Counted from the stretch's first letter, positions 5,119-20,744 are shown. The stretch: 64,000 nt of DNA from Candidatus Doudnabacteria bacterium RIFCSPHIGHO2_02_FULL_43_13b (GCA_001777655.1 MFER01000013.1:68322-132321), one strand, 5' to 3'. A program made the numbers and translations. Notes: generated by a model not told the origin, from the sequence alone.

Positions 5119-5403
5119 TGGTGCCGCAGGTCAGAATCGAACTGACTACGCTCGCCTCTTCCAAAGGCTACTTGGACTATATCATCATCCTTTATAAAAA
5201 GGAGTTGGGCGCTGGTGCAGGGTTATTGTTGGGACTCACCTGCTAGTCTCTACACCTTACAGGAAACCTTCAGCCCTTCCTGCCTTGGCTCGGGATTGTC
5301 TTTTGCAAGAGTTCCCCCGAATTCACCCAATTTTTCTCAAGAACCATTACTGGTTCTGGCCCCAAAGATTTAGGGCGACGCTCTACCAATGAGCTACTGC
5401 GGC
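5119..5403 (-). tRNA. tRNA-Phe (anticodon GAA inferred) interrupted by a group I intron between U33 and G34
   Basis: 5' exon GCCGCAGTAGCTCATTGGTAGAGCGTCGCCCT; 3' exon GAAGAGGCGAGCGTAGTCAGTTCGATTCTGACCTGCGGCACCA. The spliced product is a canonical 75-nt cloverleaf with A73. Confidence 0.7.
5162..5371 (-). ncRNA. Group I intron (IC3-like, tRNA-intron type), about 210 nt
   Basis: P1 pairs exon CCCU with the guide sequence GGGG (U-G at the splice site). P10 pairs UCUUU with the 3' exon GAAGA. The intron ends in G. Core motifs CAAUCCCGAGCCAAG, GGUGUAGAGACUAGC and GAUAUAGUCCAAG match cyanobacterial tRNA-Leu introns. Confidence 0.7.
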
Positions 5404-5594: not shown

Positions 5595-5702
5595 AAAAAT
5601 CCCTCAAAGTATAAGTTAGATTGAACCATAGGTCAATTGTAGCATGAATTGCAGACTACTCCGACGTTTCAGTCGGAGTCCCGACCGCTATGCGTTCGGG
5701 AT

Positions 5703-5730
5703 TGACAAATCTGCGTTTTTGTGCTAACAT
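5703..5730 (+). promoter_or_regulatory. Sigma70-like promoter (TTGACA, 16-nt spacer, TAACAT) driving the GC-rich ORF
   Basis: TTGACAAATCTGCGTTTTTGTGCTAACAT, followed by a roughly 140-nt leader holding the long hairpin GCGCTGCTT..AAGCAGCGC and the RBS TAGGAGGAAGTAATG. Confidence 0.5.
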
Positions 5731-5879
5731 ATTTAGTTTGATAGTACTTTTATATCGACTTGCGGAATGGCGCTGCTTGTGCAGTTCTAAAATTTAGGAC
5801 TTTATAAGCAGCGCTGTTCCGAACTCAATCGGAAAGCTCTGACCAGCTCCGATAAGGGGCACCTTCTTAGGAGGAAGTA

Positions 5880-6491
5880 ATGGAATTGCCAAATCGCGTG
5901 CTCGTGAAATTTCGAATCAATCTCACCCGGGCCGCCGAACTGCGTGCCGCTGGACTCTACGAAGTCAAGCGCAGCATCGTGCAAGACCAGGCACTGCGGG
6001 GCAGGCAGGCCATCGAAGCGGAGGCTCTCGGTCGCGACCCATACCGCGGGCAGCGAACGGACGCCACTGGCACTGTCCGCCCGGACAGCGGCACGCCCAT
6101 GTTCACCTGGGACCCCAAGGGTCGGGTGAACGTGTGCCTGGCGACAACGATCGAGGATCTCCAGACGATTCTGGGCATGGTGTTGACGCAAGTCAACACG
6201 CTACAGAAACCGAACGATCACATGGCTTTCCTCGTTCTCAAGTTGGAGAACGCGGGATCGCCGGTGAATCTGTCGGCCAAGCAGCAGGCCCTCATCGACC
6301 GGCTCACAAGCCGGATCTACGGTCACCTGCATGGGTACAGAAACCCAGACAGATCGTGGACGCTCAACGCGGCCCACGCCGAGGACAACCCGTCCGAGAT
6401 CCGCGACGTACGGTTTTCCACAGACGGCTCAGTTCGCTGCGTCCCACGCCAGCAACACCCATCACACCACCAGCCGCCACCCCGCGGCTGA
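5880..6491 (+). CDS. Hypothetical protein (203 aa) encoded by a GC-rich, apparently foreign cassette
   Basis: GC about 62 % with strong G/C third-codon bias, against about 40 % in the flanks. It has its own promoter, an AGGAGG RBS and a downstream terminator hairpin; no recognisable domain. Confidence 0.55.
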   Translation: MELPNRVLVKFRINLTRAAELRAAGLYEVKRSIVQDQALRGRQAIEAEALGRDPYRGQRTDATGTVRPDSGTPMFTWDPKGRVNVCLATTIEDLQTILGMVLTQVNTLQKPNDHMAFLVLKLENAGSPVNLSAKQQALIDRLTSRIYGHLHGYRNPDRSWTLNAAHAEDNPSEIRDVRFSTDGSVRCVPRQQHPSHHQPPPRG

Positions 6492-17007: not shown

Positions 17008-17334
17008 ATGAAAATAATTATTAGCAAAGAAATGGGAAAATTTATCTATTCTCTTGAGAAGCAAACAATTGCCAAAGTTTTACGCACTCTAGATTTATTA
17101 GAAGAATTTGGTTACAAACTGCCAATGCCTCACAGCAAAAAGGTTTCGCGGAACATATTCGAACTCAGAACACGAGGACAACAGGAAATTCGAATATTCT
17201 ATTGCTTTTATCAAAGTAGAATTTATTTAATCTCGGGATTTGTTAAGAAGTCGCAAAGAATACCTCGTAAAGAATTAGAAAATGCAGAAAATAAATATAA
17301 AACTTTGGTTATTAATACTCTTGACAAGATATAA
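17008..17334 (+). CDS. Type II toxin, RelE/HigB (Gp49-like) family
   Basis: IFELRTRGQQEIRIFYCF..IYLISGFVKKSQ matches the Gp49/HigB addiction-module killer pattern; followed by an HTH antitoxin. Confidence 0.7.
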   Translation: MKIIISKEMGKFIYSLEKQTIAKVLRTLDLLEEFGYKLPMPHSKKVSRNIFELRTRGQQEIRIFYCFYQSRIYLISGFVKKSQRIPRKELENAENKYKTLVINTLDKI

Positions 17335-17355
17335 CTTATAAGTTATATTATATTC

Positions 17356-17628
17356 ATGCAAAGCTACAAATATTTCAAGGCTCAACTACTTAAGGATAAA
17401 ACTATCAAAAAGGCCTATAAAGAACTGGGACCGGAATTTGTTTTGGTGAAAATGTTGATTGAAAAGAGATTAAAACAAGGCTTGACTCAAACAGAACTAG
17501 CCCGAAAGATCGGTTCACAACAACCGGTAATTTCAAGACTGGAACGAGGAACTTATAATCCAACGATAAAATTCCTACATCGAATCGCTGACGCTCTAGA
17601 CGCCGAACTGAAAGTTTCAATTTCTTAA
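17356..17628 (+). CDS. HTH XRE-family antitoxin (HigA-like)
   Basis: GLTQTELARKIGSQQPVISRLERG helix-turn-helix. Confidence 0.7.
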   Translation: MQSYKYFKAQLLKDKTIKKAYKELGPEFVLVKMLIEKRLKQGLTQTELARKIGSQQPVISRLERGTYNPTIKFLHRIADALDAELKVSIS

Positions 17629-18444: not shown

Positions 18445-18546
18445 TGTCTTTGCGAGCGAAGCGAAGCAATCTCTTTACTTAGGTCGGGATTGCTTCGTCG
18501 CTGTCGCTCCTCGCAAAGACAGAAGGAAAAAGACAGAAGGAAAAAG
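18445..18546. repeat. Palindromic repeat family 1 copy (12-bp perfect outer inverted repeat TGTCTTTGCGAG/CTCGCAAAGACA) followed by a 14-bp tandem GACAGAAGGAAAAA x2
   Basis: Shares the GCGAGCGAAGCGAAGCA and TTGCTTCGTCG arms with the copy at 351..428. The tandem ends at the ruvC ATG. Confidence 0.7.
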
Positions 18547-19020
18547 ATGAGAATACTAGGAATCGACCCCGGAATCGGCCGCACTGGCTATGCAATTTTG
18601 GAACAAACCAAGCAGAAAATTACTCTGCTGGCTTGCGGTTGTATCACGACCAAAACCGGCGAGGCCGAGCCTGCGCGATTGCTCGAGATCAAAACTGACT
18701 TAATGGCGATTATCAAAAAATATAAACCAGAAGCGATTTGCATTGAGTCATTATTTTTCGCGGCCAACGCGAAAACCGCGATGATGGTTGGGCAAGCTAG
18801 AGGAGTGGTGGTCGTCACCGCAGCGGAGAGCAAACTAAAAATTATTGAGGTCACCCCACTGCAAGTCAAAATTGCTGCCACAGGTTATGGCAAAGCGGAT
18901 AAACGGCAAGTGCAAACCATGATTGTCAAACTTTTGAAGTTAAAAAAAATCCCCAAACCCGATGATGTAGTGGATGCCATCGCTATCGCATGGGCGGGGA
19001 TTGGACGGACTAAGTACTAA
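18547..19020 (+). CDS. ruvC: Crossover junction endodeoxyribonuclease RuvC
   Basis: MRILGIDPGIGRTGYAIL RuvC N-terminus; start moved to the internal Met after the repeat. Confidence 0.9.
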   Translation: MRILGIDPGIGRTGYAILEQTKQKITLLACGCITTKTGEAEPARLLEIKTDLMAIIKKYKPEAICIESLFFAANAKTAMMVGQARGVVVVTAAESKLKIIEVTPLQVKIAATGYGKADKRQVQTMIVKLLKLKKIPKPDDVVDAIAIAWAGIGRTKY

Positions 19021-19029
19021 AATAAAAGA

Positions 19030-19067
19030 AAAGACCCTGTCCATCTACGAGAGTTGGACCGGGTCTT
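19030..19067. terminator. Bidirectional terminator hairpin AAGACCCTGTCC..GGACCGGGTCTT
   Basis: Long imperfect stem flanked by A-rich and T-rich runs, between ruvC and the GC-rich minus-strand gene. Confidence 0.5.
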
Positions 19068-19130
19068 CGTTGTGCACGACCGGCTGTCGCCGGGAATTTC
19101 CGTCTTTCTGGTCGTTGCCGTCTACGACGG

Positions 19131-19397
19131 CTACGAGGCGTCGCGCGTCGCTTCCGCGTCCGGTTGCGGCGGTGCGTCGCCTTCCGGGGGCGTGTTGCTG
19201 GCCGCCGCATGAGCCGCCGGCATCCGTGTATCAACAGCACGCTCTTCGCTGAAATGGAATCTCTCCGAGGGCGGGCGGGCGGGCGGAGCTGCGGTGGTGG
19301 CGGGCCGGGTCGAGCGGTTCCGGCTCCGAGCTGTCCTCGTGGAACGGCGGTTGCGCTTGCTCACTGGCTTGGCTAAACGTTTGGTCGCCTTTGACAT
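19131..19397 (-). CDS. Small, highly basic, low-complexity protein (88 aa) in a GC-rich (about 65 %) cassette
   Basis: MSKATKRLAKPVSKRNRRSTRTARSRNRS.. with an AGGAGGT RBS 5 nt upstream, a terminator downstream and a perfect palindromic operator upstream; GC far above the flanks. Confidence 0.5.
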   Translation of the reverse strand: MSKATKRLAKPVSKRNRRSTRTARSRNRSTRPATTAAPPARPPSERFHFSEERAVDTRMPAAHAAASNTPPEGDAPPQPDAEATRDAS

Positions 19398-19415
19398 GCT
19401 ACCTCCTGCTGATAA

Positions 19416-19438
19416 TTCACCTGGGATACCCAGGTGAA
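19416..19438. promoter_or_regulatory. Perfect palindrome TTCACCTGGG-ATA-CCCAGGTGAA (candidate operator or 5' UTR hairpin) upstream of the GC-rich small gene
   Basis: 10-bp perfect inverted repeat with a 3-nt spacer, 8 nt upstream of the RBS. Confidence 0.5.
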
Positions 19439-19481
19439 CCATTGAGCTAAGGTATCAGAAACCACAGTTTTAGTCAACACT

Positions 19482-19503
19482 AAAAAAGGCCTCATAGTGA
19501 GGC
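19482..19503 (-). terminator. tyrS rho-independent terminator (GCCTCACTATGAGGC plus T6 on the minus strand)
   Basis: Hairpin immediately downstream of the tyrS stop, followed by TTTTTT. Confidence 0.7.
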
Positions 19504-19589
19504 GCCTCTTCAACCCATCTCGAACGAAGGGAGAGATCTCGGTATTAACACCAAGATTTCTCGTCCCGATAAATCGGGACTCGAAATGG

Positions 19590-20744
19590 TTATTCAGTTT
19601 TAATAAATTTACGCTTACCCACCTGAATTATGCTACTGGGAGGAACCTTAGTCCCTTCATTAGCAATCTCATCATTAACCCTTACTCCTTTTTGATCAAT
19701 TAAGCGCTTAGCTTCATTTTTACTTGATGCTAAATTCGTTTCAACTAAAATACCAATAATGCTCGATTCGTGAACTTTTACATTCCGGATCTCCGAAGGT
19801 TTCTCTTTCTTAGAAAAAACTTTCGCCCACTCATTGGCCGCGCTCGTTGCCAATTTGGCTCCATGATATAACGTAACAATCTCTTGGGCCAAACGTTTCT
19901 TAATATCGCGGGGGTTAGCTCCCGCTTCCAGTTCTTTTTCCAATTCCTTAATTTCACTTATCGGCATTTGGGTCGCAAATTCAAAATATTTGAGGATCAG
20001 GTCATCATTAATCGACATAACCTTACCAAACATGTCATTCGGCTCATCTTCCAAGGCAATAAAATTACCGAGAGTCTTGCCCATCTTTTGGCCATCAGTC
20101 CCAATCAAATAATCAGCCAAGACAATATCTTGCGGCTCCAACCCGTGAGCATGCATGAGTTCTCGGCCGGTCAATAAATTAAATTTTTGATCCAGGCCAC
20201 CCAGTTCAACATCGGCCTTAGTCGCCACCGAATCGTAGGCTTGGATTAAAGGATATAACAATTCGTGAAAAGCCAAGGACTGGCCCATCTTTAATCGCTG
20301 TCTGAAAGTTTCGTGAGACATAATCCAACCAGCAGATAATTGCGAGGCTTCATAAATAACATCTTGCAGAGTAAATTTAGCAAACCATTCGGACTGCCAA
20401 TGCAATTCCAGCCGATTTTTATCCAAGATTTTCAAGGCTTGCTGTTCGTAAGTTGCAAAATTTTTGGCAATGTCGCTTTTGGTCAGTGGCGGCCGAGTTT
20501 CATTTTTGCCAGAGGGGTCGCCGATTGAAGCAGTCGTATCGCCGATAATTAAAACGGCGGTATGGCCCAGGTCTTGAAATCGCCTCAAAATCCACAGGAC
20601 CACGGCATGTCCGATATGAAGCCTTGCTCCCGTTGGATCAATCCCGAGTTTGATTCGTAATTTTTTCCCGCTATGCAGCTGCTGTTCGAGATGCTTTCGA
20701 TCGATAATCTCAGCAACACTGCGAGTCAATATTTCGTCTTCCAT
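19590..20744 (-). CDS. tyrS: Tyrosine--tRNA ligase
   Basis: HIGHAVVL (HIGH) and KMGKT (KMSKS) class I motifs, C-terminal S4 domain. Confidence 0.9.
   Translation of the reverse strand: MEDEILTRSVAEIIDRKHLEQQLHSGKKLRIKLGIDPTGARLHIGHAVVLWILRRFQDLGHTAVLIIGDTTASIGDPSGKNETRPPLTKSDIAKNFATYEQQALKILDKNRLELHWQSEWFAKFTLQDVIYEASQLSAGWIMSHETFRQRLKMGQSLAFHELLYPLIQAYDSVATKADVELGGLDQKFNLLTGRELMHAHGLEPQDIVLADYLIGTDGQKMGKTLGNFIALEDEPNDMFGKVMSINDDLILKYFEFATQMPISEIKELEKELEAGANPRDIKKRLAQEIVTLYHGAKLATSAANEWAKVFSKKEKPSEIRNVKVHESSIIGILVETNLASSKNEAKRLIDQKGVRVNDEIANEGTKVPPSSIIQVGKRKFIKTE

Follow-up and report, generated by a model that had tools for sequence, protein, structure and literature searches.

The DNA analysed here is a stretch of 64,000 nucleotides (the window; GCA_001777655.1 MFER01000013.1:68322-132321) from Candidatus Doudnabacteria bacterium RIFCSPHIGHO2_02_FULL_43_13b, an uncultured member of the Candidate Phyla Radiation (CPR, or Patescibacteria) from groundwater of the Rifle aquifer, with a genome of ~43% GC. 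Our subject is the gap of 569 nt between the stop codons of two convergent genes, ruvC and tyrS, and the small minus-strand open reading frame (ORF) that lies in it. A preliminary description of the window had reported an ORF of 88 amino acids at this site, and the ORF scan bears this out. The predicted protein of this frame, ORF88, begins MSKATKRLAKPVSKRNRRSTRTARSRNRSTRP; its N-terminal third is basic and rich in Arg, and its C-terminal part is acidic and rich in Ala and Pro.

The GC content of 200-nt windows rises to 0.595–0.695 across 19000-19400, compared to 0.40–0.48 in the flanks, and the GC-rich stretch that had been marked at 19040..19400 is thus confirmed (0.60–0.70 GC across 19000-19400). 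ORF88 itself is 68.5% GC, with values of 0.63, 0.70 and 0.73 at the first, second and third codon positions (GC1, GC2 and GC3). About two thirds of its GC excess is explained by a protein rich in Ala, Pro, Arg, Thr and Ser, for which host codon usage would give an expected GC of 0.61. The deviation is borne out even at synonymous sites, as GC3 is 0.73, whereas the same protein encoded with host codon usage would have 0.49 (z = 4.6). The host GC3, taken from 63 ORFs in the window, is 0.434 ± 0.076, and only ORF88 and one other gene, ORF203, are outliers to it. Codon adaptation was uninformative as a test of foreignness (0.73 for ORF88, 0.76 ± 0.03 for the host), because host codon usage is nearly flat.

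ORF88 is framed by a set of predicted expression signals, several of which recur in related genomes (Table 1; loci fetched from other contigs and genomes are given L-numbers, and that of the window is W). Upstream, the unit is bounded by the intrinsic terminator of tyrS, a hairpin found at the same position in L120, and W and L120 are alike from the tyrS stop through this terminator. Just past it lies a predicted sigma-70 promoter of the form TTGACT-N14-TGA-TACCTT, with a -35 hexamer at 19477..19472, a 17-nt spacer ending in TGA and a -10 hexamer at 19454..19449, from which transcription is predicted to start near 19442. A simple promoter scan did not list the site because its -10 matches the consensus at only three of six positions. 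W, L120, L039 and L024 nevertheless have in common the block TTGMYY-N14-TGN-TAYYTT (first hexamer TTGACY or TTGCTT across the four species), beginning 111–122 nt after the tyrS stop, and in all four the first ORF led by a Shine-Dalgarno (SD) sequence begins at nt 196–225 after that stop. The pattern has a single match in the window compared to 0.02 expected, a statistic that is not independent as the pattern was derived from the same four sequences. The earlier suggestion of an independent transcription unit past the tyrS terminator is therefore supported by a predicted promoter that is kept in position and spacing in three related species.

Translation would start from a consensus SD that stands where the GC-rich body begins at its 5' end, with the ORF beginning right after it. 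The preliminary description was right about the presence of AGGAGGT and not about its distance from the ATG, which we measured as 3 nt rather than 5. The context CAGCAGGRGG...ATG is common to W and L039. At the other end of the unit, a stem of two 16-nt arms (19067..19052 and 19046..19031; 14/16 pairs, 88% complementary) is followed by the U-tract TTTTCTTTTATTTT. This stem is present in both the minimum free energy (MFE) and the centroid fold and has the GC-rich stem-loop and U-tract of an intrinsic terminator, confirming at 19031-19067 the terminator-like hairpin that had been proposed downstream of the ORF. A T-tract of the form CTTTTCTTTT also adjoins ruvC in L120 and L039.

Between promoter and SD lies a perfect 10-bp palindrome, TTCACCTGGG-TAT-CCCAGGTGAA (19438..19416), whose arms at 19416-19425 and 19429-19438 are those of the inverted repeat seen in the preliminary description. 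It can be extended to 14 bp (AUGG.../...UUAU) around a loop of 3 nt, and would occupy about +1 to +31 of the predicted mRNA. Stem-loops also lie directly downstream of the -10 in L039 and L024, with predicted MFE values for the 5' end of -22.8 (W), -13.3 (L039) and -20.4 kcal/mol (L024); L120 has the promoter without the stem. The left stem arms of the three loci look homologous (TTCACCTGGG, TTGACCGGG and TTGCCGGCG), each with a complementary right arm; in the RNAalifold consensus 8 of 16 pairs have changes on both sides, for these three sequences only. The element had been described as an operator or a hairpin of the 5' untranslated region (UTR). As stem-loops of different sequence stand at the same place in the relatives, the second of these fits better than the first, and the palindrome is more likely a 5'-proximal mRNA stem-loop whose pairing, rather than its sequence, appears to be kept.

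Table 1. Features of the tyrS/ruvC gap and of the other GC-rich gene in the window, and gaps between tyrS and ruvC in related Doudnabacteria.
Feature	Position or gap size	Strand	Basis or remarks
ruvC	stop 19018-19020	+	convergent with tyrS
Intrinsic terminator of the unit	19017..19067	-	inverted-repeat search and folds; U-tract overlaps ruvC stop codon
ORF88	19131..19397	-	ORF scan; 88 codons and TAG
G-quadruplex-type motif GGGCGGGCGGGCGGG	19269-19283	+	motif search; antisense (template) strand of ORF88, codons for PPARPP
Shine-Dalgarno AGGAGGT	19401..19407	-	read from sequence
5'-proximal stem-loop	19412..19442	-	inverted-repeat search, fold, comparison with relatives
Predicted sigma-70 promoter, extended -10	19449..19477	-	read from sequence; same architecture in relatives
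tyrS intrinsic terminator (GCCTCACTATGAGGC then CTTTTTT)	19489..19503	-	terminator scan; upstream boundary of the unit
tyrS	stop 19590-19592	-	convergent with ruvC
ORF203	5880-6491	+	other GC-rich gene, 62% GC; leader 5700-5879
Gap in L123	37 nt (stop to stop)		too short for a gene
Gap in L125	~40 nt		too short for a gene
Gap in L033	113 nt		too short for a gene
Gap in L122	204 nt		no convincing ORF
Gap in L120	471 nt		61 aa, 57.5% GC; missed by the source's gene caller
Gap in L121	584 nt		90 + 60 aa
Gap in L039	590 nt		87-aa ORF, 73.5% GC
Gap in L024	694 nt		78 + 82 aa, 62% and 59% GC
Gap in L124	725 nt		84 aa + PspC-domain gene
Gap in L023	1049 nt		315-aa ORF on ruvC strand
Gap in L119	1650 nt		384 aa + 80 aa

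The convergent pair is kept in 17 of the fetched loci, mostly from distant CPR-type relatives, and we compared the gap in 12 genomes, namely the window and 11 related Doudnabacteria with RuvC 71–84% identical. Gap size in these relatives ranges from 37 to 1650 nt. In three of the 12 genomes (L123, L125 and L033) ruvC and tyrS are directly adjacent and leave no room for a gene, in one the gap is 204 nt without a convincing ORF, and the remaining eight, including the window, hold mutually unrelated contents. Six of the seven gene-bearing relatives hold small orphan ORFs, and all of these small ORFs have the orientation of tyrS and an SD; most are GC-enriched (53–73.5% compared to a locus GC of 42–52%). 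They match no family, and an all-against-all comparison of the slot ORFs found them unrelated, the sole weak pair being L024_82 and L121_60 (E = 0.034). The 87-aa ORF of L039 occupies the same slot as ORF88 and resembles it in size, in GC and in the distribution of charge, with a basic N-terminus and a Pro-rich, acidic C-terminus. Homology between the two was considered and rejected, as their similarity is not significant against composition-preserving shuffles (gapped z = 0.7–1.5, ungapped p = 0.25–0.7) and the shared R-M/L-P at residues 58–60 is anecdotal. The same orthologous core genes thus flank different accessory content, or none, as in an integration hotspot, and the most economical reading of these comparisons is that Doudnabacteria have a small hotspot of gene turnover in the tyrS/ruvC gap. 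Since different small genes or none occupy the same spot in relatives, it is a changeable accessory slot rather than the site of a known regulator.

ORF88 itself is a strict, species-specific orphan. A word-indexed search of 5.8 billion protein clusters and a full phmmer search against 1.84 billion representatives each returned nothing but ORF88 itself; Pfam (0 matches at E ≤ 10), PHROGs, NCBIfam, PADLOC and the sequences of the Protein Data Bank (PDB) gave no matches, and neither did IMG/VR or phage and plasmid collections, searched with both DNA and protein. No homolog was thus found by the homology searches that the preliminary description had proposed, and the protein sequence shows no conservation in relatives, which that description had listed among the grounds for refuting its reading. 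Capture of a fragment of a known gene was rejected, as the other frames of the GC-rich body match nothing in Pfam. The AlphaFold2 model of ORF88 (predicted local distance difference test, pLDDT, 62; predicted template-modelling score, pTM, 0.18) has no fold and a single helix, residues 14–29 in the Arg-rich part, and as a single-sequence model is weak evidence. PADLOC gave 0 matches for ORF88 and seven other slot ORFs, offering no sign of anti-phage defence.

Taken together, we propose that 19017-19477 on the minus strand is a self-contained single-gene unit in the tyrS/ruvC turnover hotspot, with a conserved promoter and 5' stem-loop in front of a species-specific, probably disordered protein of 88 amino acids; we put the probability of this reading at roughly 0.55. 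Transcription would start at the extended -10 promoter just past the terminator of tyrS, and the mRNA would fold over its first ~30 nt into a very stable stem-loop, the palindrome, whose role would most likely be protection of the 5' end from mRNA decay or tuning of translation, a DNA operator being less likely. The strong SD would then drive translation of a protein with no hydrophobic core, an Arg-rich helical N-terminus and an acidic Ala/Pro-rich tail, and the downstream hairpin and U-tract would end transcription at the ruvC stop codon. Our best guess is that the product is young, weakly constrained and disordered, and that its Arg-rich N-terminus binds RNA or DNA non-specifically.

Comparison of the loci suggests that a group of Doudnabacteria inherited the slot from a common ancestor and that its coding content has been replaced, or has diverged beyond recognition, between species. 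Such turnover could proceed by homologous replacement via the flanking core genes, by very fast divergence, or by de novo birth. The searches made turned up neither a donor nor a recombinase, an attC site, terminal repeats or a further copy: the segment has no second copy in any searched collection; no flanking terminal inverted repeats or target-site duplications were seen beyond short imperfect repeats consistent with chance, so that a transposable element or a miniature inverted-repeat transposable element is not indicated; the W, L039, L024 and L120 spacers contain no RYYYAAC...GTTRRRY pair 40–150 nt apart on either strand; and no integrase or mobile-element gene is present among the Pfam-annotated genes listed for ~10 kb around the two GC-rich genes (~25 kb in total, around ORF203 and around tyrS). 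The preliminary description had called the unit a foreign insertion, which is not supported, as no donor was found and the regulatory frame is common to relatives, with only the ORF body being unique.

Several observations weigh against the unit being a functional gene of this kind. Of dinucleotide-shuffled versions of the T-poor body, 29.7% have ≥87 codons free of stops in the frame of ORF88, so that ORF length alone is no evidence of coding, and the GC1/2/3 periodicity is weak. The protein sequence is without conservation in relatives, so purifying selection cannot be shown, and a selection test within the population is impossible because no single-nucleotide polymorphisms (SNPs) lie inside ORF88, the GC-rich segment differing only by contig-end errors at a G-quadruplex-type motif. 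The covariation of the stem-loop comes from three sequences only, and palindromes at +1..+30 can also be operators. This reading does not account for the high GC, synonymous sites included, and no donor was found in any searched collection. Finally, transcription and translation of the unit are predictions from its sequence.

An alternative is an ORF without function, whether or not a transcript is made. The GC-rich body would then be DNA that was captured or left behind, as filler from an earlier insertion or as a cassette in decay, and would be open only because it is T-poor. Besides the frequency of open shuffles (30%) and the weak codon-position periodicity, all six frames of the body are nearly stop-free, with just 1–2 stops, no homolog was found anywhere searched and no fold is predicted. 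Against this stand the consensus AGGAGG 3–4 nt before the ATG, placed precisely where the GC-rich body begins at its 5' end; the conserved promoter upstream and proper terminator downstream, which, as predicted, are a hint of coding; and the small SD-led ORFs at about equal distance from tyrS in L039, L024 and L120. ORF88 has 48% C at codon position 2, little A at position 3, and 8–12% T throughout; the same frame-specific pattern (position 2 C-rich, position 3 A-poor, T depleted) is found in the analogous ORF of L039. We consider non-functional DNA a possible but unlikely explanation.

It is also possible, if rather improbable, that the promoter downstream of tyrS and the 5' stem-loop form a dedicated, conserved expression slot, into which unrelated GC-enriched small ORFs are repeatedly swapped or in which they are born de novo, without a recognisable recombinase. 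A process specific to the lineage, rather than recent foreign origin, would then account for the persistently high GC, synonymous sites included, of these ORFs and the ORF203 family.

ORF203 is a genuine gene, with a codon-position profile typical of coding sequence (GC1/2/3 = 0.65/0.46/0.76), a GC3 excess of z = 8.8, and some nine homologs at 45–76% identity that make up a small family without annotation. The homologs we checked lie in synteny next to truD in related Doudnabacteria (72–76% amino-acid identity) and are 57–62% GC in genomes of 40–43% GC, with GC3 of 0.70–0.78 across species. The leader of ORF203 contains a promoter-like site (TTGACA-17-TAACAT) and a long 5'-UTR hairpin (about 5766-5825). 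The island at 5880..6491 had likewise been described as a foreign insertion; since it is syntenic and GC-rich across the species checked, its high GC is maintained and it is not a fresh import. On this basis high GC of selected genes seems to be a maintained trait of the lineage, for which selection on mRNA, GC-biased conversion at a recombination hotspot or a hidden GC-rich donor (e.g. the host of episymbionts) are candidate causes if the expression-slot interpretation holds. No account of GC anomalies in Doudnabacteria was found in the titles and abstracts that a literature search listed.

A further model, which builds on the operator and the histone-like N-terminus of the preliminary description, is a small basic DNA-binding protein, histone-like or repressor-like, that regulates its own gene through the palindrome as operator. 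We regard this as improbable. In its favour, the palindrome is perfect, has no second copy in the window and overlaps the predicted start of transcription, the N-terminal part is strongly basic with its predicted helix at residues 14–29, and the palindromes differ among cassettes with different ORFs (W, L039 and L024), as if each ORF had its own operator. However, ORF88 matches no DNA-binding family in Pfam, NCBIfam or the PDB, and resembles no family of histone-like, nucleoid-associated or repressor proteins (HU, Hc1, RHH, Xre and similar) by profile, PDB sequence or predicted fold; no hydrophobic core or dimerisation fold is predicted (pTM 0.18), and Arg-rich N-terminal composition is the sole remaining hint of nucleic-acid binding. 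The left arms of the three stems moreover look homologous and change compensatorily, like an evolving RNA helix, and L120 has the promoter without a palindrome. Further copies of the palindrome were also sought, as the preliminary description had advised: it occurs once in the window, where 0 occurrences are expected even if 3 mismatches are allowed, and its use as a dispersed binding site was rejected for this reason. Two matches to it in IMG/VR belong to one GC-rich coding sequence and were set aside as chance.

Two further observations concern this leader. Public gene callers, in the long contigs, start the ORF at an upstream ATG at 19442 (103 aa), which is inside the hairpin and without an SD; on the minus strand this ATG (19440-19442) is 7 nt past the predicted -10, would sit at the predicted transcription start as a leaderless start codon, and is buried in the 14-bp stem. 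The right stem arm with its 3' flank (19412-19425; ATAATTCACCTGGG on the plus strand) is complementary at 12/14 positions to 19618-19631, where tyrS encodes the conserved IIQVG of its C-terminus; the leader could in this way pair with a tyrS transcript made by read-through, although this is probably chance and the pattern was not seen in L039.

An island of high GC in an AT-rich genome is often an RNA gene, and a structured non-coding RNA gene, GC-rich owing to its structure like rRNA or tRNA, would account for the composition here. It is a very improbable alternative. The whole 450 nt fold better than shuffles (z = -3.6 on the minus and -3.2 on the plus strand), but this signal stems from the two terminal hairpins, as the 323-nt body alone has z = +0.63. 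The sequence is not conserved in relatives, and no Rfam family reaches its gathering score in 19021-19470, where even at E ≤ 10 only noise was returned (best E-value 1.5, 18.9 bits compared to a threshold of 94 bits). The structured-RNA model is thus largely refuted.

An assembly chimera or contaminant, in which GC-rich reads of another organism were joined into a CPR contig, is suggested by the abrupt shift in composition and by the many public contigs that stop inside the region, at 19261-19281, but is essentially excluded, as comparable GC-rich ORFs lie in the same slot of other species and both junctions are crossed by six independent contigs (L013-L016, L001 and L002, from ENA and Logan; different samples, assemblers and pipelines) at 99.96–100% identity. 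Each of these has at most one mismatch, none within the unit, the sole mismatch among them being a SNP at 18536, upstream of ruvC. The contigs ending at 19261-19281 belong to five other public assemblies, including the NCBI metagenome-assembled genome GCA_001777825.1. These breaks coincide with the (GGGC)n G-quadruplex motif and the mismatches of the broken-off contigs (L018 and L019, at 19276 and 19280) are contig ends at the same motif, so that the breaks are technical; the motif is a plausible obstacle to sequencing or assembly. A further G-quadruplex-type motif, GGGGAGGGTGGGAGGGG, was noted on the sense strand of L039 (4239-4255, spacer nt 93–109), past the terminator of tyrS and ahead of the slot promoter.

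Hotspots between core genes are already known to hold orphan genes, and what is unusual here is the GC-rich composition and the retention of a regulatory frame in front of unrelated ORFs. Hotspots of integration or gene turnover (islets) between core genes are reported for the pan-genomes of E. coli and Listeria (PMC2617782, PMC3556495). The tyrS/ruvC gap is like them in being a fixed site, flanked in synteny by the same two core genes, where relatives have differing accessory genes or none, and in lacking an integrase or mobile-element gene among the Pfam-annotated neighbours listed within ~10 kb. It differs in that the slot is tiny (0–1.6 kb, mostly single ORFs of <100 aa) with contents that are all orphans, in that these contents are GC-richer than the host, and in that part of the regulatory frame (promoter and 5' stem-loop) is conserved while the ORF differs.

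The direction of the GC difference here is the reverse of the usual one, since acquired genes are usually AT-richer than the host. The morons of phages, reportedly described in 2000 by Juhala and colleagues and by Hendrix and colleagues, are said to be single genes of deviant composition, with their own promoter and factor-independent terminator, between two conserved genes. ORF88 has the same layout of promoter, one small gene and intrinsic terminator between genes that are adjacent in relatives, with a composition unlike the flanks. The unit differs in lying in a bacterial chromosome between housekeeping genes rather than in a prophage, with no phage genes nearby, and in having no homolog of its ORF in the phage collections. 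Integron cassettes offer a second comparison: in integrons the promoter Pc and attI precede promoterless small orphan ORFs with attC, and the fixed promoter, exchangeable small orphan ORFs and single orientation are shared with the slot. Unlike cassettes, the W, L039, L024 and L120 loci have no attC-type pair, no integrase is found within the neighbourhood searched above, and the slot hairpin stands at the 5' rather than the 3' end of the ORF.

The predicted leader and product each have known counterparts as well. Stem-loops at the 5' terminus stabilise mRNA in the E. coli ompA 5' UTR and in the B. subtilis aprE and ermC leaders, and as there, the hairpin of the slot is stable, a few nt from the predicted 5' end and upstream of the SD. 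In the slot it is position and pairing, not sequence, that are kept in related loci, and the transcript start is predicted from sequence. Arginine-rich-motif peptides and other small disordered basic proteins, such as lambda N, resemble ORF88, which is small, predicted to be disordered, has an Arg-rich N-terminal helix and would have an RNA hairpin in its own leader. They differ in that there is no sequence similarity, a perfect stem of 10–14 bp with a 3-nt loop is unlike boxB, and there is no antitermination context.

A number of other observations were made in the neighbourhood. Right after the tyrS stop and before its true terminator are two hairpins (19556-19587 and GAGATCTCTCCCTTCGTTCGAGATGG, within 19505-19589 on the minus strand), conserved between the window and L120 (RuvC 81% identity) and without an Rfam match; this pair may be a conserved 3'-UTR element. 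At 5152-5381 on the minus strand a group I intron (Rfam RF00028, 66.7 bits) splits tRNA-Phe(GAA) in the anticodon loop; the intron mode of ARAGORN reports the tRNA at c[5119,5403] with a 210-nt intron, and the default scan missed it. Another small variable insert nearby is a Gp49/HigB-like toxin and HTH_3 antitoxin pair (17008-17628, plus strand) inserted between the TP_methylase gene and yebC, which is found elsewhere in L122 and is absent from L119, L120 and L123.

The genomes of CPR bacteria are small and streamlined, and an orphan unit maintained from promoter to terminator is therefore a candidate for biology particular to the lineage, for example interaction with the host or the handling of RNA or the nucleoid. 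The unit may be an example of very young genes, and the tyrS/ruvC gap offers a precise locus at which the turnover of small genes can be followed across >100 public RuvC homologs at ≥69% identity. As ORF203 keeps a GC3 of 0.70–0.78, GC-rich genes in this ~43% GC lineage are not necessarily recent imports. Both the turnover of the slot and the maintained GC bear on the origin of gene novelty in reduced genomes.

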